64,000 nucleotides of DNA from an uncultured bacterium. GTDB lineage: Bacteria > Hydrothermota > UBA3072 > B12-G15. Every line of letters begins with the position of its first letter. Positions within the stretch are counted from its first letter, which is position 1. A model generated the notes under the pieces. That model worked only from the letters and a program-made list of their open reading frames with translations. It was not told the origin of the DNA and searched no databases. The stretch covers positions 866-64,865 of the forward strand of contig CBFDSV010000005.1 of the NCBI GenBank assembly GCA_965612735.1, written 5' to 3'. The position numbers and the translations under genes are program-made. Of the stretch, positions 10,187 to 53,729 are shown one piece after another.

Positions 10187-11469
10187 AGAAGGTGAATATT
10201 GAACCAATAGCAAGGGTAGAAGGGCATGGAGGCATAAGGGTTGAGGTTGAGAAGAACAAGATTAAGAAGATCACGGTTGATATATATGAGGGTCCAAGGC
10301 TGATTGAACAGATGGTGGTGGGGAAAACCCCTGAAGAGGATGTATCCATCACCTCAAGGATATGTGCAATCTGTTTTGCATCCCACAGGCTTGCCGCTAT
10401 CACAGGGCTTGAAAAGGCACTGGGTATAAAGGTCTCAAAAAAGACGGAACTCCTCAGAGAACTTGCCCACTTTGGAGAGATGATAGAAAGCCACTCACTC
10501 CACTATTACCTGCTTGCGCTCCCTGACCTGGTTGGATATCCTGATGCAATTTCCATGGTGAACAAGTATCCCGATGATGTTGTTGGTGGTCTTGAATTAA
10601 AAAAGTTCGGGAACAGGGTGATGGAGATAATTGCAGGGAGAAGGATACATGGGGAAAACATGCGGATTGGTGGATTTGGTAAAATACCCTCAGATGAAGA
10701 ACTCAACTGGATAAAGAGAAGGGCATCAGAACTCATTCCCATTATTGAGAGTGGGCTTGAACTATGGGGAAAACTGGAGATACCCGACTACATGGAAGAA
10801 GAGACAAACTTTGTCTGTATGGAACCAGGTAATAATCAGTTTGGATTCTCTGGAACTGAGATAATGGTTTCAGATGGTACAAAGGTTGATGTTGAGGAAT
10901 ATAAGAAAATCACCAATGAGAGGGTTGTTGAACACTCCTTTGCAAAAAGGTGCAGATATAAGGGAAAACCCTACACTGTTGGTGCAATTGCAAGGATAAT
11001 AAATCTTGGGGACAGGATAAAGACACCCATAGCAAGGGACTATCTTGACAGATACTACGATGAGAAAAAGTGGAAGAGAAATCCCATATACAACAATGTG
11101 GCACAGGCAATAGAACTCTTGTGGTGTCTTGAAAAAATCCCTGGATTGGTTGATGAGATAAAAAAGGCAGAATACAAACCTGTGAAAGCAAAGAGGGAAG
11201 ATGGAACAGGAACAGGTGGTGTTGAAGCTCCAAGGGGAACCCTTTTTCACAGTTACAAAATCAAAAATGGGCTTGTTGCAGAGGCAAACTTCATAGCACC
11301 AACCACCCAGAACCTTGATGAGATGGAGAAATACATGATGAATGCTGCAAAAAATCTCCTCAACCAGGGCAGGGAAGATATTGAACTACCGCTTGAGATC
11401 ATAGTCAGGGCGTTTGACCCATGCATAAGTTGTAGTGCCCACCTTGTAAGGGTGGTTAAAAAAGGCTGA
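10183..11469 (+). CDS. hydA: [NiFe]-hydrogenase large (alpha) catalytic subunit, group 3-type.
   Basis: N-terminal RVEGHGG and RICAICFASH (L1 Ni-binding Cys pair). C-terminal DPCISCSAH (DPCxxCxxH) Ni-Fe ligand motif. Confidence 0.9.
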   Translation: MKKVNIEPIARVEGHGGIRVEVEKNKIKKITVDIYEGPRLIEQMVVGKTPEEDVSITSRICAICFASHRLAAITGLEKALGIKVSKKTELLRELAHFGEMIESHSLHYYLLALPDLVGYPDAISMVNKYPDDVVGGLELKKFGNRVMEIIAGRRIHGENMRIGGFGKIPSDEELNWIKRRASELIPIIESGLELWGKLEIPDYMEEETNFVCMEPGNNQFGFSGTEIMVSDGTKVDVEEYKKITNERVVEHSFAKRCRYKGKPYTVGAIARIINLGDRIKTPIARDYLDRYYDEKKWKRNPIYNNVAQAIELLWCLEKIPGLVDEIKKAEYKPVKAKREDGTGTGGVEAPRGTLFHSYKIKNGLVAEANFIAPTTQNLDEMEKYMMNAAKNLLNQGREDIELPLEIIVRAFDPCISCSAHLVRVVKKG

Positions 11470-33478: not shown

Positions 33479-33525
33479 ACACAATATATAGTGGTAATTT
33501 TAAAAAAAACCACAATATATAGTTG
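33479..33525 (+). promoter_or_regulatory. Tandem NrdR boxes (ACACAATATATAGTGG at 33479..33494 and CCACAATATATAGTTG at 33510..33525), spaced 31 bp apart. Box 2 overlaps the -35.
   Basis: Each matches the NrdR consensus acaCwAtATaTwGtgt at 13-15 of 16 positions. Phasing of about 3 helical turns. Located immediately upstream of nrdD. Confidence 0.65.
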
Positions 33526-33551
33526 ACAATCCCTTGCTTTCCCTTTATACT
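33523..33551 (+). promoter_or_regulatory. Strong sigma70-like promoter of nrdD: TTGACA, 17 nt spacer, TATACT.
   Basis: Consensus -35, 5/6 at -10, optimal spacing. RBS AAAGGAGG lies 4 nt before the ATG at 33574. Confidence 0.6.
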
Positions 33552-33573
33552 GGTTTTGAGAAAAGGAGGTTTG

Positions 33574-36500: not shown

Positions 36501-37938
36501 CTCTCTCAGGATTCATTCAAAGGCAGCGGTTGGCCTTTGCAAAGACTTCGTGGAGGCCAAAGGAAGAGATAAGCACTACACAGCCAGAGTCTTCGGGATG
36601 AGTAAAGAATTTAGATGGGGGGTGATTGAAGGACATTTAGCTACTGACGGCGGGACAAGAAACCGTATTTATACTTCTTCTCTAAAAATGGTTCAGACCC
36701 TGAACATGCTTTCTGCTTCTCTTGGAACCACTACATCAGTTAGAGTAGATGAAAGAGACAACAGATTAAGTGATAAGCCTGTTTACAGTGTTCTGATTTA
36801 TAGATTAAACAGGGAAAATTATGGGGACTTCTGGTTTAAAAAAGGAGATAAACTCTGGGTACGAATAAAAAGTATTACACCAAAAGGAATTTCTACAGGT
36901 TATTGCTTTGAGGTTGAAAATGATGAACCTATGTTTACTGTTGGAACCACAGGTATTCTGACCCATAACTGTAGACTCAGGTTGGACAACAGGGAGTTGA
37001 GAAAGAGGGGAGGAGGTCTCTTCGGGGCAAGCCCCATGACAGGCTCAATCGGTGTTGTTACAATAAATATGCCAAGAACAGGTTATCTATCACGGTCTGA
37101 AGAGGAATTTCTATCAAGGCTTGAACGATTGATGATACTGGCAAAGAACTCCCTGGAGATGAAGAGGAAGGTGCTTGAGGACCTGACAGAGAAGGGTCTC
37201 TATCCATACTCTCGGGTCTATCTATCAGAAGTAAAGAAGGCAACAGGTTCTTACTGGACAAACCACTTCTCAACCATAGGTCTTGTTGGAATGAATGAGG
37301 CATGCATGAACTTCCTTGGTGTTCCCATAACTGCAAAAGAGGGAAAGGAATGGGCAATAAAGATTCTCAATTTCATGAGGGAAAAACTTGCAGATTTTCA
37401 GGAGGAAACTGGAAACCTCTACAATCTTGAGGCAACACCTGCTGAGGGAACCTCATACCGTCTTGCAAAGAAGGACAAGGAGAGGTTTGCCTCCATCTTC
37501 ACACAGGGTGATTCTGATACACCATATTACACAAACTCAGTCCATCCACCTGTGTATGAGTTTGATGATATATATTCATTACTTGAACATCAGGATGACC
37601 TTCAGGTTTTATTCACAGGTGGAACAGTTGTACATCTTTTCCTTGGTGAACCTGTCCATGATTGGAAAATTGTCAGGGAACTTGTGAGAAGAATTGTTGA
37701 AAGATTCAGACTTCCCTACTTCAGCATTACGCCCACATTCTCCATATGCCCTGTTCATGGATACATACCTGGTGAACATCACATATGCCCGTATCCACAC
37801 ACAAAAGAAGAATTGGAAAGATTCGGGGTCATCACTGAACTAACAGAGGAAGAACTTTCAAGGTTACCAGAAAATGCCTACATTAAACCAGAGGACCCTG
37901 GAGGGACTTCCCTATTCCTTGACCTTGGGAATAAATAG
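33574..37938 (+). CDS. nrdD: Anaerobic ribonucleoside-triphosphate reductase catalytic subunit (class III RNR), with ATP-cone and two LAGLIDADG inteins. The glycyl-radical domain is absent (encoded separately downstream).
   Basis: ATP-cone at the N-terminus. HIHDL active-site finger. The two extein junctions, sequence-SM|CRLRL and NCVGWDL, align with the two catalytic Cys regions of E. coli NrdD. C-terminal YYTNS and a Zn-ribbon-like CPVHGY...HHICPY. The ORF track starts at 33523, but the Met with RBS is at 33574. Confidence 0.85.
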   Translation: MERFIRKRDGSIVPYDRARIIRAVSNAMNAVGCKGEADEIAKYVEILLHRWFFRKGSIPHVEEIQDIVERTLMEKGYPEVAKAYILYRQKRKEARDIKSTVEEAENLIEQYIARSDWRVKENSNMNFSLQGMNFYISSSITARYWLNRIYTEDIKRAHDDGDFHIHDLGLLSVYTYYGKEVVIVKDSEGIKLISFEDLYNSCNTQEKLLNERDGAYAKYPVDIYVLDKDGWTKVKRIVKKKKDRYMRFLKNRGGRSVIVTDNHPIITRNGERMAKDVQIQKDETFTVDIPALLKDENLFEEKEIDLLQEIKKYNFEEEIREKIYFNGFHISEIENTSEDGYIHTLTQSFPGKIPLTEELGYLIGFILAEGYLSYDEKAPRTVTVSQKERDILAKINKTLVKLGIPGCINRREDHNVYELVVKNVFFRFLLEKVFGIRPGARHKTLPVRILHYGKEFIKGLIAGFIDGDGSISSSKTTIDVRISSRALLEQMAYLMTFLGITPRDRNLEGAGSVRFYKGREIHQNFPLYGLSFRKTDVELPSQIFQKAERSSKAWHDEDRNAWHIVLNNEKTEIPDDVIYDITTESSTLIVNGMWNHNCVGWDLEALLRRGFGGVAGKIESRPPRHLRTALGQMVNFFYTLQGEAAGAQAFSNFTTYLAPFIRYDGLDRKGVKQALQEFLFNVNVATRSGFQTPFTNITMDLEPPENLKNKNVIIGGEEKGETYGEFHEEMDLLNDVFAEVMMEGDAKQRIFTFPIPTYNITKDFDWKNEKLKSLWEMTAKFGIPYFANFVHSDMKPEDARSMCPIHGDEMVLIRSKRGRGLEYSCIRNIVEGHAKENTYEIFSHGKFVRGRFNRFPNQEMIQVELANGHTLVISKTHINFVMRSRDSEIEELTGAELKPGMFLPYSLKAYNGKGGNRDLGFFVGAYAGDGSFDNDKTVVFSLNKDDRVLREELIRISEKYFGAHYSIIEPEGKGLLSLRIHSKAAVGLCKDFVEAKGRDKHYTARVFGMSKEFRWGVIEGHLATDGGTRNRIYTSSLKMVQTLNMLSASLGTTTSVRVDERDNRLSDKPVYSVLIYRLNRENYGDFWFKKGDKLWVRIKSITPKGISTGYCFEVENDEPMFTVGTTGILTHNCRLRLDNRELRKRGGGLFGASPMTGSIGVVTINMPRTGYLSRSEEEFLSRLERLMILAKNSLEMKRKVLEDLTEKGLYPYSRVYLSEVKKATGSYWTNHFSTIGLVGMNEACMNFLGVPITAKEGKEWAIKILNFMREKLADFQEETGNLYNLEATPAEGTSYRLAKKDKERFASIFTQGDSDTPYYTNSVHPPVYEFDDIYSLLEHQDDLQVLFTGGTVVHLFLGEPVHDWKIVRELVRRIVERFRLPYFSITPTFSICPVHGYIPGEHHICPYPHTKEELERFGVITELTEEELSRLPENAYIKPEDPGGTSLFLDLGNK
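34087..35364 (+). mobile_element. Intein 1 in nrdD (about 420 aa) with a LAGLIDADG homing endonuclease. N-terminal boundary is approximate (34087-34105).
   Basis: Intein block B (SVIVTDNHPIITRNG). LAGLIDADG blocks C and E (LIGFILAEGYL; LIAGFIDGDGSI). C-terminal block G ending ...LIVNGMWNHN followed by extein Cys (C|VGWDL). Confidence 0.7.
35980..36969 (+). mobile_element. Intein 2 in nrdD (330 aa) with a LAGLIDADG homing endonuclease.
   Basis: Begins CPIHGDEMVLI (block A, Cys1). Block B GHTLVISKTHINFV. LAGLIDADG motifs FFVGAYAGDGSF and RWGVIEGHLATDGG. Ends GILTHN followed by extein Cys (C|RLRLD). Confidence 0.8.
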
Positions 37939-37949: not shown

Positions 37950-38129
37950 ATGAAGGAGATAAAAAAACAAAATGAAAAAGCCGCATCAAAAAAAATCAGG
38001 GTTAAAGTTATAATGCCAGAGATTTATTCAAGGGTTGTTGGGTATTTCAGACCTGTCCAGAACTGGAACAGGGGAAAACAGAAGGAATTTCAGGAGAGGA
38101 GATACCTTAAGATTGATAAGGGGGTTTAG
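37950..38129 (+). CDS. Stand-alone glycyl-radical domain protein (59 aa) corresponding to the C-terminus of NrdD. Not in the supplied ORF track (below its 60-aa cutoff).
   Basis: Translation is MKEIKKQNEKAASKKIRVKVIMPEIYSRVVGYFRPVQNWNRGKQKEFQERRYLKIDKGV. It contains RVVGY (the RVxGY glycyl-radical motif) and a following NxGKxxE...R segment matching the NrdD C-terminus. GGAGG RBS 4 nt upstream. Its stop overlaps the probable nrdG start. Confidence 0.7.
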   Translation: MKEIKKQNEKAASKKIRVKVIMPEIYSRVVGYFRPVQNWNRGKQKEFQERRYLKIDKGV

Positions 38130-38802
38130 CGGAACCACCCTTATAGATTTTCCTGGAAGGATTGCATCCATTGTCTTTATTGGAGGATGCAATTTCAGGT
38201 GTCCCTTCTGCCACAATCCTGAACTCGTCCTTCCCGACCTAATTCAAAAACTCCCAATTCTTACTTCAGAAGAAGTGTTTGAAGAACTGCAAAACCGCAG
38301 GGGTTTTATTCAGGGTGTCACCATCACTGGTGGAGAGCCCCTTGTATGGGACAGCCTGATTGATTTTGTTAGGGGAATAAAATCACTCGGACTGGAAGTC
38401 AAAATAGATACAAATGGCTCCTTCCCTGAGAGGCTGAAGAAGTTAAAAATTCTGGTTGACTATGTTGCAATGGACATAAAATCCTCTCCTTCAAAGTACC
38501 ATCTTGCAACAGGCACTGATATAGACCTGGATAAACTCAAAGAATCCATAGCAATAGTCAAAACCTTCAGGGATTATGAATTCAGAACAACGGTTGTTCC
38601 AGGATTTGTTGACCAAGAGGACATTCATGAAATTGGAGAAATCATAAAAGGAGCAAAAAGGTATGTTCTCCAGCAGTTTAAACCAACAAAGGCAATAGAC
38701 CCGGATACATTGAGTATAATTCCATATACACTTGAAAGGCTTGAGGACTTCAGGGAAACAATCAAAGACTACGTTGATGAGGTCATTATAAGGTCATACT
38801 AA
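38113..38802 (+). CDS. nrdG: Anaerobic RNR activating protein (radical SAM). The ORF track extends it to a TTG at 38035; the TTG at 38113 fits homologues better.
   Basis: GGCNFRCPFCHN (CxxxCxxC radical SAM cluster) about 25 aa from the proposed start. GGEPL SAM-binding motif. Immediately downstream of nrdD and the glycyl-radical ORF. Confidence 0.8.
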   Translation: MIRGFSGTTLIDFPGRIASIVFIGGCNFRCPFCHNPELVLPDLIQKLPILTSEEVFEELQNRRGFIQGVTITGGEPLVWDSLIDFVRGIKSLGLEVKIDTNGSFPERLKKLKILVDYVAMDIKSSPSKYHLATGTDIDLDKLKESIAIVKTFRDYEFRTTVVPGFVDQEDIHEIGEIIKGAKRYVLQQFKPTKAIDPDTLSIIPYTLERLEDFRETIKDYVDEVIIRSY

Positions 38803-42928: not shown

Positions 42929-43474
42929 TTACTCCTCCTTGAATGGATGGAAGTTCACAAAGTCTGCAAAGTGAACAATCCAGCCCTCGGGAATCCTCTT
43001 GACAAAATCACCCTCCTTTGAGTGTGCAGCAATTATGTGGACAACCTGGTATGGAAGACCATTCTTGTATGCAAGTGCAGCACCTGAAACAGGATGCCTT
43101 ATTCTCTTTCCGAATTCACCAACGTGGATTGTATCCTCTTTTACATACTCAAGGAACTTCCCTACATCATGCAGGATTGCACCAGAAACAAGTATATCCC
43201 TCTCCATGGGTAGAGCATCCCCATATTCCTCTTTTAATGTATCAAAGATGGCAATAGCAGTCCTTGTTACTGCCCTTGTATGTTTGATAAGGGAGATTTT
43301 TGTTCCCTTGATGAGCATGGTGAACGGTATCTCCTCAAGGTCCTCCTCCTTCCAACCCCCAATCTGGATGGCCTCCTCAATGGTCTTAATGGTCTTTTCC
43401 TTCAGTTCACTATCCTTAATCTCCTCAACCTCAGGAAAGATTTTTCTTATATCCATTTCCCCTCCTTCTTTCAC
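42929..43474 (-). CDS. HD-domain phosphohydrolase.
   Basis: H...HD motif (GAILHDVGK) and a downstream His cluster (HIIAAHSKEGD). 181 aa. Confidence 0.6.
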   Translation of the reverse strand: MKEGGEMDIRKIFPEVEEIKDSELKEKTIKTIEEAIQIGGWKEEDLEEIPFTMLIKGTKISLIKHTRAVTRTAIAIFDTLKEEYGDALPMERDILVSGAILHDVGKFLEYVKEDTIHVGEFGKRIRHPVSGAALAYKNGLPYQVVHIIAAHSKEGDFVKRIPEGWIVHFADFVNFHPFKEE

Positions 43475-44457
43475 CCCCTCCCCTTTCTGGGGACGGAGGT
43501 TGACTTTTTGACATTTTTATCTCCTCGTTCCTTCTCCTTTTTAATACGTTCCTTTGCCCTTTTATAAATCTTTCCAAGTGATGAATATCTTAGATTTTTA
43601 AAGATGGGCATCCTGATAATATCACTATACTTCAATCCTGCTTCATCCCTCAACCTCACCAGCAATTCACCACGAAGCCTTTTTCCATTTCTTTTTGAGG
43701 TATCAATCTTTTCAACCTTTACACCAGACTCTTTTTCAAAATCCCTGATAACTTCGGAAGGTTCAACAAATGGATAATCCTTCTTTCTTCTCCGAAGATT
43801 TTCCCCGGTAGATTTTCTCCTGTTAAAACGTCTTTCAATCTCCCCAACAAACTCAGTATTCCCAATCACGTCTCCAAACCGTGTCCTCTTCACATCTGGA
43901 GATTTGTCCCTTGAAATCCAATCCATGAAAAGTGCGTCAAGTTTATCCTTCCCTCCAATGATACTTTCAACAAATTCATGGTCCACAAGGCCAGATGTTT
44001 TTTCAGAAAAGTAATCTGATATACTTGACCATATGTATTCGTATGGATTCTTAACAATTCCTGCACGAACAGGATTCAGTAAAACATATGTGAGTACCAT
44101 AATCATGTAGGGCTCATCCTGAATCAAAGTGGATTTGTACCTATCTTGAAAAACATACCCTTTCCCACCCTCAAGATATCTATAATATTTTCCAAAAGTA
44201 CCATTCAGATACCTCATAAAATCACCAAGCCTTCCTGAGGAATTCTGCAAAACAAGATGATAATGATTATCCATAAGGCAATATGCAAATATTTTTATAC
44301 GGTATTTATTCTTTGCCTCTGCCAACAGGTTGAGGAAATAGTTTTTGAGTTCTGTAGACAGAAAAACAGGTTCTCCCCTTAATCCACGGGAGACAATATG
44401 ATGATATGCACCTTCATAAGTTACACGGGCATGCCTCATAGAGAGGATTATAAACAA
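43471..44457 (-). CDS. REP-associated tyrosine transposase (RAYT; IS200/IS605-like Y1 HUH transposase) with a long basic C-terminal extension. Probable true start is the ATG at 44439.
   Basis: HHIVSRG and the HUH motif (MDNHYHLVL). Catalytic-Tyr region (FQDRYKS). Flanked by inverted REP copies. The C-terminal roughly 150 aa is K/R-rich with a possible DnaA-domain-IV-like HTH. Confidence 0.75.
   Translation of the reverse strand: MFIILSMRHARVTYEGAYHHIVSRGLRGEPVFLSTELKNYFLNLLAEAKNKYRIKIFAYCLMDNHYHLVLQNSSGRLGDFMRYLNGTFGKYYRYLEGGKGYVFQDRYKSTLIQDEPYMIMVLTYVLLNPVRAGIVKNPYEYIWSSISDYFSEKTSGLVDHEFVESIIGGKDKLDALFMDWISRDKSPDVKRTRFGDVIGNTEFVGEIERRFNRRKSTGENLRRRKKDYPFVEPSEVIRDFEKESGVKVEKIDTSKRNGKRLRGELLVRLRDEAGLKYSDIIRMPIFKNLRYSSLGKIYKRAKERIKKEKERGDKNVKKSTSVPRKGRG
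43489..43518 (+). repeat. REP-like element, copy 3 (+): GGGGACGGAGGTTGACTTTTTGACATTTTT. It forms the left inverted repeat flanking the RAYT gene.
   Basis: Same core as copy 1. Preceded by CCTCCCC, which can pair with GGGG(AC)GGAGG. The annotated 3' end of the RAYT ORF reads through it (…PRKGRG*). Confidence 0.7.
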
Positions 44458-44461
44458 ATTT

Positions 44462-44495
44462 GAGAAACTGTCAAATTGTCCACCTCCGTCCCCGG
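44462..44495 (-). repeat. REP-like element, copy 4 (- orientation), 5 nt upstream of the RAYT start. It is the right inverted repeat.
   Basis: Reverse complement reads CCGGGGACGGAGGTGGACAATTTGACAGTTTCTC. Preceded (on that strand) by CCCCCCC ATTT, giving a hairpin. Confidence 0.7.
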
Positions 44496-44506
44496 AAATG
44501 GGGGGG

Positions 44507-44534
44507 TTGATTTATTTTTGGGGTGGTGTAATAT
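44507..44534 (+). promoter_or_regulatory. Sigma70-like promoter (TTGATT, 16 nt spacer, TAATAT) that would produce a leaderless or near-leaderless mRNA for the EutN-like gene.
   Basis: The -10 ends 6 nt before the ATG at 44541. No Shine-Dalgarno is present. Confidence 0.4.
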
Positions 44535-44540
44535 ATTTCC

Positions 44541-44897
44541 ATGTTTATAGGTAAGGTCATAGGCACTGTATGGGCCACCAGAAAGGTGGAATCGTTGAGT
44601 AATTTGCGTTTCCTCCTGATTCAGCCTGTTGATATAGAGAGGGAGGCAACAAAAAGTGTGGTTGTTGCTGCAGACCCAATTGGTGCAGGGCCAGGTGAAA
44701 TGGTTCTTGTCTCCTTTGGCAGGGCTGCAAGGCTTGCATGTGGAAATGAAGACCTGACTATAGAAGCAGCAGTAATTGGCATTGTTGATTCTATTGACAT
44801 AAATGAAGTCTCAATAAAGAAGGGTGTTGAGGCCTTTGACCTCCTTCAAAGGGAACTTGAGAAAGCAGGGCTGAGAGTGAAGAAGAAAGATGAATGA
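44541..44897 (+). CDS. Bacterial microcompartment vertex (pentamer) protein of the EutN/PduN/CcmL family, with about 25 aa C-terminal extension.
   Basis: GKVIGTVWATRKVESLSNLRFLLIQP ... AADPIGAGPGEMVLVSFGRAARLA ... AAVIGIVDSI is collinear with EutN/PduN (PF03319). Confidence 0.7.
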   Translation: MFIGKVIGTVWATRKVESLSNLRFLLIQPVDIEREATKSVVVAADPIGAGPGEMVLVSFGRAARLACGNEDLTIEAAVIGIVDSIDINEVSIKKGVEAFDLLQRELEKAGLRVKKKDE

Positions 44898-46197
44898 GAT
44901 AGATGCAATAAAACAGGCTGGTGTGGTTGGAGCAGGGGGAGCAGGCTTCCCCACATATGTCAAAATGCAGTCCACTGTAAAAACATTTATCCTGAATGCT
45001 GCAGAGTGTGAACCCCTTCTCCATAAAGACAAAGAAATCCTCAGGCATTTTGCAGGGGATGTTATCTCAGGGATGAAGATTGCAATGAATTTAACAGGTG
45101 CAGAAATAGGGTTCGTTGCTGTCAAAGAGAAATATCCTGATGTGATTGCTGCAATTGATAAGGTACTGGACACAGACAAAATTAAAATATTTCCCCTTGG
45201 TGATTTTTATCCTGCTGGTGATGAGTTTGAACTGGTGTATGAGATTACAGGTAAAGTAATCCCCGCTGGAGGAATTCCCCTTGATGTTGGATGCGTTGTT
45301 AACAATGTGGAAACCATTTACAACCTGAACAATGCGATTTCAGGCATACCCGTAACTGAAAAATTTATCACTGTTGCAGGGGCTGTTGAAAATCCATACA
45401 CTGCCAGGGTTAAAATTGGCTCACCATTTTTGCCTTTGATTGAGATGGCAAAGCCAGTAACAAAGTACTACAGGGTGATTGAAGGTGGCCCAATGACTGG
45501 AACTGTTGTTGACCATGAAAATGCCTTAGTTACAAAGACAACATCAGGAATTATAATCCTTCCTGAAGACCATTATCTCATCAAAAGAAAAACCATCCCA
45601 TCAAAATCTATCCTGAAGATAACACAGTACTGTACCCAGTGTACTCGTTGCACCGACCTGTGCCCAAGGCATCTCCTCGGTCATACAATCAGGCCTCACA
45701 GGGTAATGAGGAATATTGGTTACAAATTGACTGATACAGATGTTGTAATGGATGTATTCAATTGTTGCCAGTGTGGATTGTGTGAGTACTTCTCCTGTCC
45801 TGTTATGCTCTCTCCCATGAGCACAATAATGGAGATGAAGCAATTCCTGATTTCACAGGGTGTGAAACCAGAAAAGGGTAAAAATCCAGAACCGGATATA
45901 GAAAAAAAATCCCGCAGAGTTCCTGTGAAGAGACTTATCCAGAGGATAGGCATAATCAAATATCTAACTGATGCACCCCTTACTGAGATAAAGACAGAGC
46001 CCCGTGAATTCACCTTATTGCTCAAACAGCACATTGGAACACCTGCTTCACCCATAAAAAAGCCTGGTGAAACCGTTAAAAAGGGTGAAAAGATTGCTGA
46101 TATAGAAGATGGTAAACTTGGAACACCAGTCCATTCCCCTGTGAATGGAAGGATTGTAGCAATTACAGGGGAATACATACGAATAAGAAAAGCATGA
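44890..46197 (+). CDS. PduS / RnfC-family flavo-iron-sulfur oxidoreductase.
   Basis: N-terminal QAGVVGAGGAGFPTYVK ... NAAECEPLL (the RnfC/Nqo1-type NADH/FMN site as in PduS). Two 4Fe-4S ferredoxin motifs (CTQCTRCTDLCP; CCQCGLCEYFSCP). 8-nt overlap with the EutN-like gene. Confidence 0.7.
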   Translation: MNEIDAIKQAGVVGAGGAGFPTYVKMQSTVKTFILNAAECEPLLHKDKEILRHFAGDVISGMKIAMNLTGAEIGFVAVKEKYPDVIAAIDKVLDTDKIKIFPLGDFYPAGDEFELVYEITGKVIPAGGIPLDVGCVVNNVETIYNLNNAISGIPVTEKFITVAGAVENPYTARVKIGSPFLPLIEMAKPVTKYYRVIEGGPMTGTVVDHENALVTKTTSGIIILPEDHYLIKRKTIPSKSILKITQYCTQCTRCTDLCPRHLLGHTIRPHRVMRNIGYKLTDTDVVMDVFNCCQCGLCEYFSCPVMLSPMSTIMEMKQFLISQGVKPEKGKNPEPDIEKKSRRVPVKRLIQRIGIIKYLTDAPLTEIKTEPREFTLLLKQHIGTPASPIKKPGETVKKGEKIADIEDGKLGTPVHSPVNGRIVAITGEYIRIRKA

Positions 46198-46874
46198 AAA
46201 AGGCAATCCTTCTGATACACGGTTTTGGAGGAACCCCTTATGAGATGCAACCAGTAGGAAGGCTCGCTGAAAAACTGGGTATAAAACCTATATATGCAAA
46301 ACTTCCAGGCCATGGTGGTAATCCCTTTGAACTGGAAGGAATAAAAGCAGAGGACTGGATAGAATACCTTGTTGGGCTCTACAGTTTGATTGAGGCGGAT
46401 TTTGACTGGATTTCAGTATGTGGCCTCTCCCTTGGTGCACTCCTCGCTGGCATTCTTGCAAAGGAAAAACGGCCTGAAAAACTTATTCTCCTTGCACCAG
46501 GTGTATATCCCAAGAGGTCAGCATTCCTCCTTGCGCCCTTTGCAGGATTCATCAGGGGAAAACTTGTCAAGATAGCAGATGAAAGTTTGAATCCAGAATC
46601 AAATATTTATGTGCCATTGAGTTCTGTTAAGGAACTATGGAGGGTCGTCAGGATTTTTGCAAGGTCAATTGAAGGAATAGTTTCCCCAACACTTGTTATT
46701 CAAGGGCTTTCAGACGAGATGGTGAAGATAGAATCAGCATATTTTGTAAAGAAGAGGCTTGGAGAGAGGGCAAGACTCGTTCTGATTCCAGGTGTGGCTC
46801 ATGTTGTTACCCTTGATAAAAATGTTGATAAAACACTGGGTATAGTAAAGGAGTTTCTCTCTTGGCCTCGGTAA
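46194..46874 (+). CDS. Alpha/beta hydrolase (carboxylesterase-like).
   Basis: ILLIHGFGGTP. Nucleophile elbow GLSLG (GxSxG). 226 aa. Confidence 0.6.
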   Translation: MKKAILLIHGFGGTPYEMQPVGRLAEKLGIKPIYAKLPGHGGNPFELEGIKAEDWIEYLVGLYSLIEADFDWISVCGLSLGALLAGILAKEKRPEKLILLAPGVYPKRSAFLLAPFAGFIRGKLVKIADESLNPESNIYVPLSSVKELWRVVRIFARSIEGIVSPTLVIQGLSDEMVKIESAYFVKKRLGERARLVLIPGVAHVVTLDKNVDKTLGIVKEFLSWPR

Positions 46875-47899
46875 GAACAAGTGTTAAAAGAGGAATAAGG
46901 CTTTTTTTGATACTCCTTGTGATTACAATTGTCCTGCTCCTATCCCTCACGGTTACAGGAGAAACATGGCATGCATTAAAGCGTCTGCCCATCTATTATT
47001 TTCTTATCGCCCTCCTCTTCTGGGGCATATACATTCTCTTTGACGCATTGAGACTGCTGGTCATCATACATGGAATAACAGGGAGATGGCTAAAACTCTC
47101 TGTATCATTTGATGTAATACTCACAGGCTCATTCATGGCAGCAGTAACACCCTTCCAGACAGGTGGTTTACCTGTTCAACTCTACATCCTGCATAAGAAT
47201 AAACTATCCATTGGAAAGGGCACACTTGCACTCCTTTTAAGGGGCATATTTTATGCCCTTTTTATATTCACCCTGATTCCATTTTTACTCCCTCTCTATC
47301 GTTCCATGGAAGGTTCAAAACTTTCAACAATTCTTAACTACTCCAAGTTTGTATATATCTTTGTTATCATTGCCTTCATACTTGTGATTACAATACCTGA
47401 AAAAATAAAAAACGGACTTCTAAAGCTCACAGGCCATCGTGAAAATAAATTAAAAAGGGTGATACGAAAAACCTTTGATGAAATAATTGATATGAAACAA
47501 GAATTCTGGGCATTCACAAAGAAAAAATGGTGGCATACACTTGGAGCATACATCCTCAGTTTTCTTTCATATATTCCATACTACTCAATCGCCCCTTTGA
47601 TATTGAAAGGGCTTGGTATTGATGTTAATTACTACCACGTGTTTTTCCTCCAGGTTTTTCTTATACTCTTCACCTTCTTCTTTCCAACACCCGGTGGTAC
47701 AGGTGCTGTTGAAGGAGGTTTTGCAGTCCTGTTCACAACAATCGCACCGAGACACATACTGGGTGTTTATACATTGATATGGAGATTTTTCACATCCTAT
47801 ATCACTGCAATTGTGGGTGGATTTTTAACCCTGAAGGTGTTAAAATTAGGTGATGTGGAGATTGAAGAAAATGTAGAATCTGAAGTTGATGAACCTTAA
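46862..47899 (+). CDS. UPF0104-family (lysylphosphatidylglycerol-synthase-TM-like, flippase-like) membrane protein.
   Basis: About 8 TM helices. Conserved PTPGGTGAVEGGF motif near the C-terminus. Confidence 0.55.
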   Translation: MASVRTSVKRGIRLFLILLVITIVLLLSLTVTGETWHALKRLPIYYFLIALLFWGIYILFDALRLLVIIHGITGRWLKLSVSFDVILTGSFMAAVTPFQTGGLPVQLYILHKNKLSIGKGTLALLLRGIFYALFIFTLIPFLLPLYRSMEGSKLSTILNYSKFVYIFVIIAFILVITIPEKIKNGLLKLTGHRENKLKRVIRKTFDEIIDMKQEFWAFTKKKWWHTLGAYILSFLSYIPYYSIAPLILKGLGIDVNYYHVFFLQVFLILFTFFFPTPGGTGAVEGGFAVLFTTIAPRHILGVYTLIWRFFTSYITAIVGGFLTLKVLKLGDVEIEENVESEVDEP

Positions 47900-48695
47900 A
47901 AAATTTCCAGTAATTTACTGGAAAAGGAGGTGTAATATGAGAAGGTTCTTTATAATCACAATTCTGGTGGGGCTAATTTTCACACCCATGTTTATTGAGG
48001 GCGCTTCCTGGAAAGGAATTCTTGGGAAGATGAAAACCAATTATTCAACCCTTCAGACAAAGGTGCAGGATATGAAATTTCAGGGAGTAATGCTGATGAA
48101 GACCCCTGAAGGCAAGGATATGGAAACAAACTTTACCTATTACAGAAAGGATAAAAAGTTCAGGCAGGAAATTGAGATAAAAGTTCCTGGGATGGAAGGA
48201 GGAATGAAGCAGATTGTTGTTTATGATGGCAAAAAGGGATATGTATTTTCTCCAATGGGAGAAAAAAGAGAACTCAAGGACTATGAAACTAACCAATACG
48301 AACCACCTGTTGACTGGTGGACAGACCTGCCCAAAGATGCAGTTATAAAGGGAACAGAAAAGGTTGATGGAAAGACATGCTATGTGGTTCAGGCACAGGA
48401 AGAGAATACAGTCACAAAAATATGGATTGACAAAAACAACTATGTTCCTGTTAAGGTTGAAAACATTGAGGGTGAACATAAATCAGTAATTAAATTTCTG
48501 GAATTCAAAACCACCCCTCAGGGTGGAAAGGTGCCTTACAAAATTGAGTTCTATGACAATGGTAAACTTGCCGCAACCTATATGGTTAAATCAATCCAAT
48601 ACAATGTTGGATTATCTGATGACCTCTTCAATCCTGCGAATGTAAAAACAGGAAGTATGGAAGACTTAATGAAGAAGATGATGCAAGGGAGATAA
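47886..48695 (+). CDS. LolA-like / outer-membrane lipoprotein-sorting-like periplasmic protein. Likely start at the in-frame Met about 47937.
   Basis: Signal peptide MRRFFIITILVGLIFTPMFIEGAS. All-beta composition of the LolA/DUF4292 type. Confidence 0.45.
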   Translation: MMNLKKFPVIYWKRRCNMRRFFIITILVGLIFTPMFIEGASWKGILGKMKTNYSTLQTKVQDMKFQGVMLMKTPEGKDMETNFTYYRKDKKFRQEIEIKVPGMEGGMKQIVVYDGKKGYVFSPMGEKRELKDYETNQYEPPVDWWTDLPKDAVIKGTEKVDGKTCYVVQAQEENTVTKIWIDKNNYVPVKVENIEGEHKSVIKFLEFKTTPQGGKVPYKIEFYDNGKLAATYMVKSIQYNVGLSDDLFNPANVKTGSMEDLMKKMMQGR

Positions 48696-48717: not shown

Positions 48718-50004
48718 TCAGTATTCCCTTATAGCATCTATTATCTTCATGCCAGCTGCCCTTAATGCGGGGATTATTGCACCCCCGGTGGTAGCAACTA
48801 TTGCAAGAACAAGAGACTTTACAAGCACCAATCCTGAAAAAATGCCATATATTCTTGTTTGAATCGGGAAATCTATCCCTTCTAATACTTCTGATGGCAT
48901 AGGTATCCCGTATCTCTGCATGAGGTAAGCAACAATTCCACTTACCAGAATGCCTATCAAACCTCCAATAAACCCTATGCCAGATGCCTCTGCAAGGAAT
49001 ATTCCTATAACATCAAGTTTTGAATACCCAATTGCACGGAGTGTCCCAATCTCTTTCTTTCTCTCCCAAACAGAGATGAGCATAACATTAACAATACCAA
49101 ACACAGTGATGAGTAAAAGGATGAACCAGAAAAGACCAAGAAAGCCTGTCTGGAGTGCACGAATATCCTTCAACTGGGGGATGTAGTCCATGATTGACTG
49201 AACTTTGTAATCATCCCCTATTTTTTGCTTAAGCATGTTAACCATTTCAGATGGCTCAATATCTCTTCTCAATGAAAGCGATATTTCACTCACCCCCTCC
49301 ACACCCAGGAACTCCTTCAACACATCAATGGGTATATAAACAGTTCTCTTTTCAAAAGTTGCAAGAGGGGCTTTGAAAAATCCGCTAACTTCAAGGTCAA
49401 TCAGATTAAATGTTCCAAAGGCTGTCATTCCATACAGGAAGATAATGTCCCCCCTTTTTATACCTATTTCCTCTGCAAGTCTTCTTCCTATCAGGATTTT
49501 GTACTCATACCTGTCGGGCAGAGGCAAACCTGCTGAATTAATTATAGGATTTTTTTCTCTTGTAAAATCCACACCCTGAACAAGAACAGGGAGTTGTTTA
49601 CCCTTGAAAGAAAAAAGACACCCCGTTTTCAGATAGATAGAAACCTTCCTTATTCCTCTAATTGTTTCTATTCTTTTTATAACATTTTCAGGTTCTTCAA
49701 TCAATTTATTCAACTGGTTTGCTTCTCCTTCATTGTATCCTTTTCTGGTTATAATCACCTGACCTATACCCATACTTGAATAATTCTCCACAATATCAAT
49801 CCATTCACCAAGCATCAGGCTTTCAAAAACCACCATGCAAAAAATGGCAATAGCAACCGTTGAAATGTTTATCAGGCTTCTTCTAATATTTCTTCTTATA
49901 TTCTTGATTCCCATTTGAAATCTCATATCTCCTCCCTCAGCGCCTTTACAGGTGGCATCCTTGCAATCAGAACTGCTGGGTATATGCTCCATATAATTGC
50001 CCAA
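48718..50004 (-). CDS. ABC transporter permease, FtsX-like (LolE/MacB-type).
   Basis: N-terminal TM, large periplasmic domain, C-terminal 3 TM helices with an FtsX motif region. Confidence 0.7.
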   Translation of the reverse strand: MGNYMEHIPSSSDCKDATCKGAEGGDMRFQMGIKNIRRNIRRSLINISTVAIAIFCMVVFESLMLGEWIDIVENYSSMGIGQVIITRKGYNEGEANQLNKLIEEPENVIKRIETIRGIRKVSIYLKTGCLFSFKGKQLPVLVQGVDFTREKNPIINSAGLPLPDRYEYKILIGRRLAEEIGIKRGDIIFLYGMTAFGTFNLIDLEVSGFFKAPLATFEKRTVYIPIDVLKEFLGVEGVSEISLSLRRDIEPSEMVNMLKQKIGDDYKVQSIMDYIPQLKDIRALQTGFLGLFWFILLLITVFGIVNVMLISVWERKKEIGTLRAIGYSKLDVIGIFLAEASGIGFIGGLIGILVSGIVAYLMQRYGIPMPSEVLEGIDFPIQTRIYGIFSGLVLVKSLVLAIVATTGGAIIPALRAAGMKIIDAIREY

Positions 50005-51074
50005 ACAAAAAGGAATATAACATCAACAATCCACCTTAGTGGGTTTATGGCTGGATACAATACAGGCGGGATATACTGAGTCATCTCTGCAACAGATTCA
50101 TAGTGAAACCCAACCTGCATCAATTTTCTGGTGATAATATAAGAAAAGAAAGTTCCTGCCAGACACGAAAAGAATGTGATAATAACAACCTCTGTAAGGA
50201 TGAGAAAAATAATGAATCTCCTTGAGGAACCAATTGCCCTTATTGTACCCAGGTCTTTCTTCCTCTCCATTACACTTGATAGGACTGAATTCATAATAAT
50301 ACCTGATGTCAAAAGCAGTACAATGAAGGAGAACAGATACATTTTTATATCACTTATCCTGAAAAGGGACTCAAGATTCTTCAGTCTCTCATTCCAGGGA
50401 GTTATGTTTAAATCAGGGAACATGCCTGAAAGAAGTTTTGAAAGGCTATCCGCCTTTTCATATTGATTAAAATTTACCCGTATCTGTTTCACCTCTCCAG
50501 TATCCCATAGAAGGAACTCCTCCATCTTATCGATTGGAATGCATAGATCAACCCCACCAGTAAACAATCCATTGGTCAATACACTTTCTATTTTAACCTC
50601 CTTTATACTTAAACCACCTGCCCTGTTGGTACTGAGTATTACAATGGTATCCCCAGCATCTGCTTTGAGTTTTTTTGCAAGTTTAGTGGAAATTAAACTT
50701 TCCCTCCTTGTTCCAATAACAAGGGTGTTCACAGAGAAGGTGTCATTCACAACAATGGCAGGAGCAACTATTTCAGGAATCACACGGGCATCAGGAATCA
50801 CACTTTTTATTCTCCTCTCAACTTCGTCAAAATTCTTTATTCCCTCCTGGATAAGGTCAAATGGATCATTCCCCTTTCTTTCTATAAGAATCATACCCGC
50901 ACTTTCAAGCATCAAGATTTTTGATTGTCTCTTGAATCCTTCACTTATGGAATCACTCACCTGGAGCGCAACAATGGAAACTATCAGGCAGATAAATATC
51001 ACAAGACTTCTTCTTAAATATTTAAAAATATTACGAATTGCTGTTTTGAACAACATCACTCCCCACCTTTCCAT
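49923..51074 (-). CDS. ABC transporter permease, FtsX-like (LolC-type).
   Basis: Same architecture as the downstream paralogue. Overlaps it by about 80 nt. Confidence 0.7.
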   Translation of the reverse strand: MERWGVMLFKTAIRNIFKYLRRSLVIFICLIVSIVALQVSDSISEGFKRQSKILMLESAGMILIERKGNDPFDLIQEGIKNFDEVERRIKSVIPDARVIPEIVAPAIVVNDTFSVNTLVIGTRRESLISTKLAKKLKADAGDTIVILSTNRAGGLSIKEVKIESVLTNGLFTGGVDLCIPIDKMEEFLLWDTGEVKQIRVNFNQYEKADSLSKLLSGMFPDLNITPWNERLKNLESLFRISDIKMYLFSFIVLLLTSGIIMNSVLSSVMERKKDLGTIRAIGSSRRFIIFLILTEVVIITFFSCLAGTFFSYIITRKLMQVGFHYESVAEMTQYIPPVLYPAINPLRWIVDVIFLFVWAIIWSIYPAVLIARMPPVKALREEI

Positions 51075-51723
51075 CCAGGAGTTCTATCTTTCTTCTCGCT
51101 ACTTCAATAATTCTCGCGTCGTGTGTTGAGAATACGAATGTTACACCCTGTTCCCTGTTCATTTCCTTCATGAGTTTTATAATTGAAAGACCTGTTTCTG
51201 AATCAAGATTTGCTGTGGGCTCATCTGCAAGGATTATGTCAGGCATTCCCGCAATGGCCCTTGCAATGGCAACCCTCTGCCTTTCTCCACCCGAAAGTTC
51301 ATCAGGTTTATGATACAACTTATCCCCGAGCCCAACAGCAGCAAGTGCCTCTTCTGCCCTTTTTCTCCTCTCTTTTCCCTTCATTCTCTTCAAGAGAAGG
51401 GGGAGTTCTACATTCTCAATTGCCGTGAGTACTGGAATTAGATTAAAGGTCTGGAATATAAACCCTATCCTGCTCCTCCTGATAAATGTTGCATCCCTGT
51501 CACTTATCCTTGAGACATCCCTTCCTTCAAAAAAGAGTTTGCCTTCTGTGGGATGGTCAAGAAGCCCCATAAGATTCAGGAGAGTGGTTTTACCACTCCC
51601 TGATGGCCCAGCAATCACTGTGAAATCTCCCTCTGAAATCTCAAGGTCAACCCCTCTTATTGCATGAACAACAGTCCTGCCAAGTGGATAGTCCTTTTTC
51701 ACTCCCTTAAGTTCAATAAGCAT
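51031..51723 (-). CDS. ABC transporter ATP-binding protein (LolD/MacB-type).
   Basis: Walker A GPSGSGKTTLLN, signature LSGGERQRVAIARA, Walker B ILADEPT. Confidence 0.9.
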   Translation of the reverse strand: MLIELKGVKKDYPLGRTVVHAIRGVDLEISEGDFTVIAGPSGSGKTTLLNLMGLLDHPTEGKLFFEGRDVSRISDRDATFIRRSRIGFIFQTFNLIPVLTAIENVELPLLLKRMKGKERRKRAEEALAAVGLGDKLYHKPDELSGGERQRVAIARAIAGMPDIILADEPTANLDSETGLSIIKLMKEMNREQGVTFVFSTHDARIIEVARRKIELLDGKVGSDVVQNSNS

Positions 51724-51759
51724 ATCACCCCCTTAAATTTCAAAGTTTGAAAAGGACAA

Positions 51760-52434
51760 TCACTCAAGCCTCCATGGTCTGAATGTTCCTTCAGGAAATG
51801 TGGTGATTGGTTGAAACTTTTCTACCCACACCTCTGTGTATTTTTCAGGGGTTATCTGGTTCTTAACAACCATATAGGTTGCAATATGATATCCATCAAA
51901 CACCCTTATATCCTTCATCTCCATTCTTCTCAACAGCCTTCCAGAGAGGGCATACAAATTCATAGAAACAGGAACAAGTATATCCTTTCTCACATCCATC
52001 TCTATCCTGCTGTAGGGTGCCTTTTTGTCTTTTGCCAGTAGAACAAGATGATAGAATATGCCCGTAGAATCAAGGGACACAGCCCTGTAATTATCCCTGT
52101 ACTGTGAGGCAAGCAGGTCTCCATTGGTGAATTCACTTCCAAAGAATCTGTCCCTCAGGGAAAGCCTGATTGTGCGGTTTATCTCCGGTGCATATAGCCA
52201 TATATTTCTTTCAATTAGAAGCATCTTCCTTCCTGCCTCGCTTGCTGGTGAAAGCACTTCTATAATGGTGCCTCTGTCCTTCTGAGATTTTATTAAAAAC
52301 TTATAGTCCAATGTATTCCTTTCAGATAGATGGTTTTTCATAATGATAACAGCAGAATAAGCAGGTGGTTTCAGGGACTGGTCAATCTTCTCAAGCAGTG
52401 CTTCTGGTGTTAAACTCAAAAGCAAGAGTATCAT
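51760..52434 (-). CDS. LolA-like outer-membrane lipoprotein-sorting protein (DUF4292-like).
   Basis: Signal peptide. Beta-rich. Sits between the TetR gene and the ABC ATPase. Confidence 0.45.
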   Translation of the reverse strand: MILLLLSLTPEALLEKIDQSLKPPAYSAVIIMKNHLSERNTLDYKFLIKSQKDRGTIIEVLSPASEAGRKMLLIERNIWLYAPEINRTIRLSLRDRFFGSEFTNGDLLASQYRDNYRAVSLDSTGIFYHLVLLAKDKKAPYSRIEMDVRKDILVPVSMNLYALSGRLLRRMEMKDIRVFDGYHIATYMVVKNQITPEKYTEVWVEKFQPITTFPEGTFRPWRLE

Positions 52435-53177
52435 TTATCCTCCTTTTTTAGAAGTTTTAGAAATTCATCAATAGCCTCAATTGATTCACTGAGGTTATTC
52501 CATAATGAGAATTTATTCCTATCAGCACCAAGAACCCTTTCAATGGCATCAAAGTACAGTCTGTAAATATCCTTTATTCTATCAATATAAACAGCACCAT
52601 TCTCTCTGAGTTCCTTCAGCCTTTCCATAATCTCATCACTTGCCTGGATTAGAAGGGCAGAAACAATCCTTGCGGCTCCGTATGGTGAGTACACATGAAA
52701 AATACCTTCATCAACACCCTGTTTAATTATCTCTGCAAGAACAGATGCAAAATGCTCCATTGATTTTTTATTGAGTATGTACTGAAACTGTGCGTTTTTG
52801 GGATCAATCAGGAAGTCAATTATCACATAGATTCCCTCACCAAACCTCCTTATCTTTTCAATGGCAATCTTATTAAAAACCTGATAGAACTTTTCACTGG
52901 CGTTAAGTGCCCTGTCACCCACAATCCCCCAGGCTATATCCATAAGTTTTTCCCTCATATCCTCTGCCAGGGCATCAATAAGTTCGTCTTTTGACCTGAA
53001 ATACCAGTAAAATGTTCCCTTGGCTATTCCCGCTGTATCAACAATATCCTGTACTGTGGTCTGTGTATAGCCCTTTGAATACAGAACCTTCAAACCCGCT
53101 TCAATTATCTCTTTTTTCCTTACCTCAGGCTTCTTAACTATTCTCATAATCACCTCTACTGACCGACCGTCAGTCAA
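52431..53177 (-). CDS. TetR/AcrR family transcriptional regulator. Probable true start is the ATG at 53147.
   Basis: HTH TVQDIVDTAGIAKGTFYWYFRSKDEL. The ORF-track start is a TTG. The ATG 10 codons in has a GAGGTG RBS. Confidence 0.8.
   Translation of the reverse strand: MTDGRSVEVIMRIVKKPEVRKKEIIEAGLKVLYSKGYTQTTVQDIVDTAGIAKGTFYWYFRSKDELIDALAEDMREKLMDIAWGIVGDRALNASEKFYQVFNKIAIEKIRRFGEGIYVIIDFLIDPKNAQFQYILNKKSMEHFASVLAEIIKQGVDEGIFHVYSPYGAARIVSALLIQASDEIMERLKELRENGAVYIDRIKDIYRLYFDAIERVLGADRNKFSLWNNLSESIEAIDEFLKLLKKEDK
53158..53174. promoter_or_regulatory. Candidate TetR operator: inverted repeat ACTGAC-cgacc-GTCAGT, 11 nt upstream of the tetR start codon.
   Basis: Perfect 6-bp arms. Position overlaps the RBS region of the autoregulated repressor gene. 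Confidence 0.35.
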
Positions 53178-53296: not shown

Positions 53297-53326
53297 AAAT
53301 GTCAAATTGTCAACCTCCGTCCCTGG
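53297..53326 (-). repeat. REP-like element, copy 5 (-). The reverse complement is CCAGGGACGGAGGTTGACAATTTGACATTTT.
   Basis: Supplies the last 4 codons and stop (RDGG*) of the 53310..53729 ORF. Points toward the tetR-lol operon. Confidence 0.7.
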
Positions 53327-53729
53327 AGAGGTGTTCCTGGTATTCGGGGAGATTGACAACCGCAGAATTTAATTCCTGGTCATCAAGGTTTGCATATTTA
53401 TCAATAACATAATCGGCAACAGAAAGAATATCATCAGGAAGTTCAACATTCCTATCCTTAACCAGCCTGAAGAACCCTCTTACAGGATTACCCTCTTCAT
53501 CCTTTATTTCTATCTTTTCAACACCATCAATTGACATCAGGAATGGTGGAAACCCTTCTATATAGAACCCATAAGGGGTTATCACATAATCAAAATCCGT
53601 GCAGGGCTTCCCGTGCCTTCTCCTGCATTCTGTATCAATCAGGAAAAGTAGCCTGCTCAACCTGAAAGGATGCTGGTCAGGCACCTTTTTCAATAAATAT
53701 AAAACAAGCATTTCATTAATCCTTTTCAT
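53310..53729 (-). CDS. Hypothetical protein (139 aa), possibly Panacea/DUF4065 (SocA-antitoxin-like) domain.
   Basis: No confident motif. Weak resemblance to DUF4065 (LSRLLFLID...G.P.T...YV....GFY). Its C-terminal residues are encoded by the REP element. Confidence 0.4.
   Translation of the reverse strand: MKRINEMLVLYLLKKVPDQHPFRLSRLLFLIDTECRRRHGKPCTDFDYVITPYGFYIEGFPPFLMSIDGVEKIEIKDEEGNPVRGFFRLVKDRNVELPDDILSVADYVIDKYANLDDQELNSAVVNLPEYQEHLSRDGG

Follow-up and report, generated by a model that had tools for sequence, protein, structure and literature searches.

The eutN-like and pduS-like genes and their operon

The window analysed here is a stretch of 64,000 nucleotides (nt) of contig CBFDSV010000005.1, from an uncultured WOR-3 bacterium. 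It carries a pair of overlapping genes that encode a vertex protein of bacterial microcompartments (BMC), termed BMC-P, and a PduS-like redox protein. The pair heads an operon of five overlapping genes in the order eutN, pduS-like, alpha/beta-hydrolase, LPG_synthase_TM and LolA-like:

44541..44897, + strand: eutN-like gene, BMC-P vertex protein of 118 amino acids (aa) (PF03319, structure model, Foldseek)
44890..46197, + strand: pduS-like gene, 435-aa NAD(H)/FMN protein with two 4Fe-4S motifs (Complex1_51K, RnfC_N, Fer4_17)
46194..46874, + strand: alpha/beta-hydrolase, 226 aa, GLSLG nucleophile elbow, cistron 3, 4-nt ATGA overlap with the pduS-like gene (Abhydrolase_6, Hydrolase_4)
46862..47899, + strand: LPG_synthase_TM/flippase-like integral membrane protein, 345 aa, cistron 4, 13-nt overlap, own AAGGAG Shine-Dalgarno (SD) sequence (PF03706 122 bits, TIGR00374 105 bits)
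47886..48695, + strand: LolA-like/DUF4412 protein, 269 aa, last cistron, 14-nt overlap (LolA_like 46.9 bits)

An earlier reading of the letters alone, hereafter the sequence-only reading, had reported that the first two open reading frames (ORFs) overlap by 8 nt. The ORF coordinates confirm this overlap, ATGAATGA, through which the pduS-like gene appears to be translationally coupled to eutN. Both the pduS-like and the hydrolase gene are devoid of an SD sequence, and their translation probably depends on coupling across the stop and start codons, which overlap. The same reading had described these two genes alone; they are the first two cistrons of the five-gene operon and not a stand-alone unit. 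As judged from their sequences, both proteins are intact, the first a BMC-P vertex protein and the second a PduS-family oxidoreductase with NAD(H), FMN and two 4Fe-4S sites.

To our knowledge, no role has been described for BMC-P proteins other than capping the twelve vertices of microcompartment shells. Membership of the 118-aa protein in the EutN/PduN family had been claimed together with a hidden Markov model (HMM) test set beforehand, and the test bears the claim out: the PF03319 (EutN_CcmL) match spans residues 1–83, corresponding to profile positions 1–83 of 83, and scores 100.3 bits (cutoff 25). The protein scores under the cutoff of every CcmL, EutN and CsoS4A/B equivalog model and is, on these scores, a member of none of the named subfamilies CcmL, EutN and CsoS4. 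Its sequence matches to solved structures are GrpN, CcmL and the HO (Haliangium) BMC-P. We built an AlphaFold2 model from an alignment of 63 homologues, in which the core reaches a predicted local distance difference test (pLDDT) score >90. With this model, Foldseek retrieved CcmL and GrpN with template modelling (TM) scores of ~0.8–0.9 on target length and a probability of 1.0. The top 47 PDB matches are all BMC-P (CcmL, GrpN, EutN, CsoS4 and HO BMC-P), and the top 46 align over ~88 residues with a root-mean-square deviation of ~1.6–2.9 Å.

The BMC-P core comprises residues 1–88, with GAGPGE at 48–53 and IVD at 81–83, the latter corresponding to the I(V/I)D motif which we take to be a pentamer-hexamer interface motif. 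Both motifs are present in all shell-less lineages that have a BMC-P. The acidic residue of GAGxGE is described as forming a salt bridge with the arginine of the hexamer (A/P)RPH motif in pentamer-hexamer docking (PMC13370225). In an alignment with 59 other related BMC-Ps, 32 columns reach a conservation of at least 90%, and 30 of them are unchanged here, including GAGPGE with E53 and IVD.

The protein also carries a C-terminal extension:

44805..44894, + strand: BMC-P C-terminal tail, residues 89–118, clade-specific, conserved in three shell-less lineages

The sequence-only reading had put this extension at about 25 aa, which agrees with what we found, since 35 aa lie past the Pfam domain and the protein is roughly 20–25 aa longer than a typical BMC-P. 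Residues 89–108 are modelled as a helix with a moderate pLDDT of 63–76. The tail motif VE(A/T)FD-x-(L/I)-x3-L-x3-G is restricted to three shell-less lineages, the shell-linked relatives having short charged tails, and among close strains the tail codons 89–118 show 2–4 synonymous and 0 non-synonymous changes. The hydrophobic moment of the tail is not above that of shuffled controls (fractions 0.10, 0.17 and 0.57). We considered an encapsulation-peptide role for the tail; with a helix of moderate confidence and because its amphipathicity does not exceed the shuffles, this role stays a lead only.

The second protein had been described as PduS-like on account of a GxGGAGFPT motif and two 4Fe-4S motifs, and both the motifs and the domain order sustain this description. 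In order along its 435 aa, it displays Complex1_51K (155.7 bits), a weak SLBB match (E = 2e-4), Fer4_17 and a C-terminal RnfC_N domain (residues 368–427), with the following cofactor motifs:

44929..44955, + strand: GAGGAGFPT nucleotide/FMN-binding motif, residues 14–22, invariant in homologue alignments
45631..45666, + strand: first 4Fe-4S motif, C248-x2-C-x2-C-x3-CP, cysteines invariant in the PduS alignment
45763..45801, + strand: second 4Fe-4S motif, C292-x2-C-x2-C-x4-CP, cysteines invariant in the PduS alignment

The protein is colinear with BMC-linked PduS homologues, all cofactor motifs, with their eight cluster cysteines, being invariant, and the C-terminal position of RnfC_N is common to all of its close homologues. 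Its length agrees with the ~435–450 aa of the PduS family. The exact sequence of the window protein is not on record. As far as we know, PduS-type proteins occur only as compartment redox partners, paired with the iron-sulphur-containing shell trimer PduT. The succession of Complex1_51K, SLBB, 4Fe-4S and C-terminal RnfC_N is the PduS architecture in the HMM table that forms part of the BMC catalogue (Sutter et al. 2021, PMC8217296).

The 435-aa protein could instead be the RnfC of the cell's Rnf complex, with eutN as an unrelated neighbour. It scores 260 bits with the NCBIfam rnfC subfamily model TIGR01945 (cutoff 246), its closest solved relatives are RnfC chains, and Rnf is common in WOR-3 (PMC12542636). 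Nevertheless, its residues 7–324 align to residues 131–439 of RnfC in the Rnf cryo-EM entries, from which it follows that the barrel-sandwich domain is N-terminal in RnfC and C-terminal in the window protein, a permuted order shared with all BMC-linked PduS homologues. In addition, the RnfC/RsxC equivalog models score it far under their cutoffs, no rnfD, rnfG, rnfE, rnfA or rnfB was found by Pfam among the 45 scanned ORFs of the 49 in the window with at least 110 aa, and BMC genes flank 76 of 80 loci encoding homologues with 39–47% identity. We consider it extremely unlikely that the protein is RnfC, and a plain RnfC identity was dropped owing to the permuted RnfC_N position and the genomic context.

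By the NCBIfam rnfC cutoff, the product of 44890–46197 would nonetheless be called RnfC (K03615). Table S4 of a WOR-3 survey (PMC12542636) contains metagenome-assembled genomes (MAGs) that are rnfC-present and rnfD-absent, and these may include PduS-like miscalls. Where PduS-like proteins are auto-annotated as RnfC, metabolic reconstructions of uncultured phyla can thus overstate the occurrence of Rnf.

Conservation of the operon and its shell gene context

The operon recurs in a small set of related loci. The close strains L003 and L007 have the same arrangement as the window. In lineage B (L092, L009), with a BMC-P 67% and a PduS 51.5% identical to those of the window, we found eutN, pduS, the hydrolase and two LPG_synthase_TM genes with overlapping junctions among other flanking genes. 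Lineage D (L001, L002) has a PduS 52% identical to that of the window and lacks eutN, but has kept two LPG_synthase_TM genes. The hydrolase occupies the same position in L003, L007 and L092, and an LPG_synthase_TM orthologue lies 3' of PduS in L001 (66% identical) and L092 (42%); in lineages B and D a second LPG_synthase_TM paralogue stands at the position of the window's LolA-like gene. After the PduS gene of lineage D comes a 56-aa ORF (L001 11311–11481; L002 1799–1969) that is a relic of the hydrolase C terminus, with 37% identity over 41 aa, and this ORF appears to record gene decay within the operon of the eutN-less lineage. Within the clade, no linkage is kept more persistently than that of PduS with the flippase-like gene, the BMC-P and the hydrolase being present in two of the three lineages with visible context.

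Among GTDB species representatives, the only match to the window PduS is from the WOR-3 isolate AUK059 (L011), with 94% identity on a 4.2-kb contig; a fragment 97% identical is assigned to candidate division WOR-3. The five clade sequences group together in a neighbour-joining tree of PduS, on a very short stem (0.01) and without support values, and for this reason we give more weight to the shared synteny. Altogether, the comparison of these loci shows a small WOR-3 clade in which the pair consistently forms the two coupled cistrons that open a conserved operon.

In some bacteria, aminoacyl-phosphatidylglycerol is the substrate of alpha/beta-hydrolases that stand beside MprF-type flippase domains. 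By analogy with these proteins, cistrons 3 and 4 could plausibly serve in lipid modification. A role in defence was considered as well, and none of the five operon proteins had a PADLOC match. The LolA-like gene of the operon is abutted by a convergent cluster of TetR, LolA_like, ABC ATPase and MacB/FtsX permease genes (48718–53177, − strand), an envelope/lipoprotein-trafficking neighbourhood.

Selection on the pair was compared between the window and three close strains. The ratio of non-synonymous to synonymous substitution rates (dN/dS) is 0, 0.03 and 0.03 for eutN and 0.12–0.15 for pduS. Lineages A and B share 81% identity in the BMC-P core and 51.5% in PduS, as against 86% and 71% for the shell-linked pair L096 and L010; from this comparison, the shell-less BMC-P appears no less constrained, relative to PduS, than a shell-linked BMC-P. 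These values bear on the reading that the pair is a decaying relic of a lost BMC locus, transcribed only as the leader of useful genes. Shell genes are indeed missing locally and a sister lineage is already without eutN and most of the hydrolase, as a relic would have it; yet no strain has a broken copy of either ORF, the cofactor ligands do not vary and the EutN core is better conserved than PduS. We regard this reading as very unlikely, and a pseudogene or relic is rejected by the dN/dS values of both genes.

The sequence-only reading had noted the absence of BMC-H and BMC-T shell genes, aldehyde dehydrogenase and PTAC near the pair, and this absence now extends to the whole 64 kb. Seven tblastn queries, consisting of four BMC-H/BMC-T proteins from related loci and of PduA, EutM and CcmK2, gave no window match below E = 0.2, and queries for PTAC, aldehyde dehydrogenase, RpiB and DeoC had no match in the 64 kb. 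The Pfam scans of the window ORFs described above revealed no BMC genes beyond the eutN/pduS pair, and no Rnf genes. Likewise, PF00936, the domain of the hexamer and trimer genes, was not found in ~31 kb of related contigs, made up of 10 kb by which strain L007 extends the view and of 21 kb from lineage D. The scanned ORFs are housekeeping and envelope genes, for example NrdD/NrdG, PlsY, an aconitase-family gene, MacB/FtsX-ABC-LolA, GlmS, NiFe hydrogenase, FTHFS and IF2/NusA.

Two of these groups deserve a separate mention. NrdD (33523–37938, + strand), an anaerobic ribonucleotide reductase of 1471 aa, contains LAGLIDADG homing-endonuclease and intein-splicing domains and therefore hosts one or more inteins; the gene is followed by that of a radical-SAM activase (38035–38802). 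A four-gene NiFe hydrogenase cluster (7499–11469, + strand) encodes Fer4_22, FAD/NAD-binding, small-subunit and large-subunit proteins and resembles cytoplasmic group 3.

A search of metagenome contigs with the clade alignment returned no further clade members and instead BMC-linked PduS homologues, so that our background consists of the 80 metagenome loci matched in this way, with PduS homologues 39–47% identical to that of the window. A BMC-domain gene lies in the flank of 76 of these 80 loci, and directly 3' of PduS in 76 of 94 PduS-bearing loci, as compared with none of the six clade loci in which this position is visible. Typically this gene encodes ~183 aa; that of L096 fits the PduT model best, and those of L004 and L010 keep the TICSGK cysteine. 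Hydrolase or LPG_synthase_TM genes occur in none of the 80 background loci. At least seven 21-kb loci (L014, L023, L041, L054, L056, L072 and L086) have PduS followed by a single PduT-like gene, and the 10 kb to either side of these two genes are free of further BMC genes. Such isolated PduS/BMC-T loci are common and agree with the PduS/PduT homologue pairs that are listed as frequent satellites in the BMC catalogue (Sutter et al. 2021, PMC8217296, Supplementary Data 2).

On long contigs, the BMC-P relatives with 50–57% identity belong to a compact cluster behind a sigma-54 activator, in the order extended BMC-H, BMC-P, small ORF, PduS, PduT-like BMC-T and ACT-domain protein (L010 9434–14349; L096/L097 6419–13051). 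No aldehyde dehydrogenase or PTAC lies within 10 kb of this cluster, which appears to be an uncharacterised shell-plus-redox module. Other BMC-P relatives adjoin either PTAC or an aldehyde dehydrogenase that is extended at its C terminus. In ten loci outside the clade, a BMC-P gene lies at most 1.5 kb 5' of PduS and a BMC-domain gene directly after PduS, and in five of them BMC-P and PduS are directly adjacent. The window pair corresponds to the sub-module BMC-P, PduS, PduT-like BMC-T, often preceded by BMC-H, minus its PF00936 genes, and we infer that the pair originated by loss of these genes.

What the BMC-P does in the clade can be read in two main ways. The reading we favour, though tentatively, is that of a fragmented BMC, in which the BMC-P would still cap a microcompartment shell, with the genes for the hexamers and trimers of that shell at other places in the genome. 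The arrangement would resemble the FRAG types and the PduS/PduT satellites, the PduS-like protein would be the NADH-linked electron relay of that compartment, and co-transcription with lipid and membrane genes would reflect operon history rather than shared biochemistry. The BMC-P may still cap a shell because it keeps the residues of its shell-linked relatives and the docking motif, and because its constraint relative to PduS is at least as strong as in shell-linked loci. There is also a strong prior that a BMC-P accompanies BMC-H, and scattered genes have precedents: according to Supplementary Data 2 of the catalogue (Sutter et al. 2021, PMC8217296), the shell genes of FRAG types are spread over as many as six places, far from the enzymes, and PduS/PduT homologue pairs are known from many BMC types and as satellite loci (Sutter et al. 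2021; Axen et al. 2014, PMC4207490).

The alternative is a shell-independent co-option, in a clade without PF00936 genes, of the BMC-P pentamer, which through its clade-specific C-terminal helix would act as a small scaffold or partner of the PduS-like protein. Translational coupling would give a fixed BMC-P/PduS ratio. The redox pair would work with the hydrolase and flippase-like proteins and might, for instance, feed electrons from NAD(P)H into a lipid or envelope modification at the membrane. Several observations weigh against a fragmented BMC and, for the most part, in favour of this alternative. PF00936 is missing from the 64, 10 and 21 kb of clade DNA. The PduT-like neighbour is missing in all six clade loci, compared with a BMC-domain gene in the flank of 76 of 80 background loci. 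The eutN-pduS-hydrolase-LPG_synthase_TM operon, with its overlapping junctions, is kept at ~50% PduS identity in different flanks, and PduS with LPG_synthase_TM outlasts the loss of eutN and of the hydrolase; such a linkage, persisting across lineages with different flanks, usually means functional coupling, here to membrane genes. The tail motif, under purifying selection, occurs in the shell-less lineages only. The literature points the same way, if weakly: no WOR-3 entry appears in the accessible part of the BMC catalogue (Sutter et al. 2021, PMC8217296), a survey that covers 181 MAGs of WOR-3 (PMC12542636) does not mention microcompartments and does not tabulate BMC genes, and our literature searches found no paper linking WOR-3 and microcompartments and no phrase match for BMC-P-only genomes.

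Other observations speak against a co-option. We know of no BMC-P that functions without a shell. The window protein shows no burst of change, with the docking motif and 30 of 32 conserved positions unchanged, and its constraint equals that of EutN in shell-linked loci. The amphipathicity of the tail is not above the shuffles. Lineage D, which lost eutN and kept PduS, counts on both sides: it speaks against a fragmented BMC, and it shows PduS to be independent of eutN. Finally, the DNA inspected is ~5% of a genome. On balance we consider the co-option possible but doubtful, and slightly more doubtful the full claim that the BMC-P is under strong selection as a shell-independent PduS partner, acting with the hydrolase and flippase-like proteins in a clade without hexamer and trimer genes. 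A fragmented BMC accordingly stays our preferred, if tentative, account; the relic and plain RnfC readings are disfavoured, and the remaining probability falls to other readings.

The promoter of eutN and the upstream RAYT gene

The region upstream of the operon contains three features:

44507..44534, + strand: putative sigma-70-type promoter read from the sequence, TTGATT (44507–12), 16-nt spacer, TAATAT (44529–34), 6 nt to the ATG at 44541
44483..44504, + strand: REP-like G+C hairpin CCTCCGTCCCCGGAAATGGGGG abutting the -35 element, 2 copies in the window versus 0 expected, terminator-like
43471..44457, − strand: RAYT-type Y1 transposase, divergent neighbour outside the unit, likely start ATG 44439 (Y1_Tnp 38.9 bits; REP_Tyr_transpos 70.6, cutoff 80)

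The promoter TTGATT-16-TAATAT, ending 6 nt before the ATG with no SD, had been given exactly by the sequence-only reading, and its interpretation as a leaderless-type promoter is strengthened by a geometry conserved across lineages. The element matches the consensus at 8 of 12 positions, which is below the threshold of the scanner, and promoter-like sites in the eutN region are no commoner than in shuffled sequence. It is identical in five close strains despite differing upstream flanks, and lineage B, at 67% EutN identity, has TTGTAA-16-TATAAT-6-ATG, which is the same geometry. No SD precedes eutN, whereas most genes of the window carry AAGGAGG, and the in-frame TAA within the -10 hexamer excludes a longer eutN ORF or an upstream start. 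Based on these four observations, namely strain identity, lineage B geometry, lack of an SD and the in-frame TAA, the eutN transcript is most likely leaderless.

Two other genes show similar starts. The RAYT gene has a perfect promoter, TTGACA-16-TATAAT (44474..44447), with the -10 ending 7 nt before the likely ATG, and its mRNA likewise looks leaderless. In a SocA/Panacea antitoxin-domain gene (53310–53729, − strand), TTGACA is combined with a TANNNT hexamer that ends 6 nt from the ATG; this gene lacks an SD and is another candidate leaderless gene.

The RAYT gene is flanked by inverted REP-like hairpins at 43478–43499 (−) and 44483–44504 (+). The hairpin upstream of eutN is kept in L007/L008, which have no RAYT; in L011/AUK059 it has diverged and only the GGGGTTGATTT junction remains. 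This hairpin is the boundary where strain-specific upstream DNA starts (region 44400–44500 of the window): a RAYT gene in the window and in L003, an IS3-family transposase in L007/L008 (L007 8668–9855), and the gene of a surface protein with a type IX secretion system (T9SS) tail in L011/AUK059 (L011 1145–2605). We take the RAYT gene to be a chance feature of individual strains, at a hot spot of rearrangement, and not part of the unit. The pair does lie next to it, as first described, but the RAYT gene is divergent, strain-specific and incidental.

Significance and comparison with known systems

A conserved BMC-P and PduS without PduT, joined to lipid and membrane genes, can have two meanings. 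If the BMC is fragmented, the known range of fragmented BMC architectures would extend to WOR-3, a phylum without reported microcompartments. If the pair has been co-opted, the BMC-P fold would for the first time be seen at work outside a microcompartment, and PduS-type enzymes would gain a new role in the cell. In either case the feature is real and correctly identified; it is a variant of a satellite-like BMC module, not yet demonstrably a categorically new one.

Compared with the Rnf complex, the window protein has a homologous core for FMN/NADH and two 4Fe-4S clusters in common with RnfC; it differs in the permuted RnfC_N and in having no other rnf genes alongside. With PduS, the Pdu cobalamin reductase, and the PduS/PduT pairs it shares domain order and motifs, at 39–48% identity to homologues of BMC loci. 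Unlike in those systems, the PduT-like BMC-T is absent at the window locus, where the partner shell gene is BMC-P, and no B12-related or other BMC cargo gene lies near the pair.

The BMC-P itself has a full-length Pfam match, fold, GAGxGE and I(V/I)D motifs and core size in common with EutN, CcmL, PduN and GrpN. In contrast to known BMC-Ps, it has a conserved tail of ~30 aa, predicted to be helical and shared with two other shell-less lineages only, and its gene has no PF00936 gene in the 64 kb, is coupled to a pduS-like gene and is co-transcribed with hydrolase and membrane genes. The compact L010/L096/L097 locus holds its closest shell-linked relatives on long contigs, with the same order of BMC-P then PduS; there, however, BMC-H comes before and a PduT-like gene after, a small ORF stands between BMC-P and PduS, and the hydrolase and LPG_synthase_TM genes are lacking. 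The ACT-domain protein of the compact locus may be compared with the one noted for FRAG4. The types FRAG1–8 (Sutter et al. 2021) are defined by BMC-P triplets and a BMC-H somewhere in the genome, whereas the window has a single BMC-P and no BMC-H in its 64 kb. A satellite BMC locus (Axen et al. 2014; Sutter et al. 2021) is defined by one class of shell gene only and by a main locus with BMC-H and BMC-P elsewhere in the genome; of these two marks the window locus shows the first, its only class of shell gene being BMC-P.

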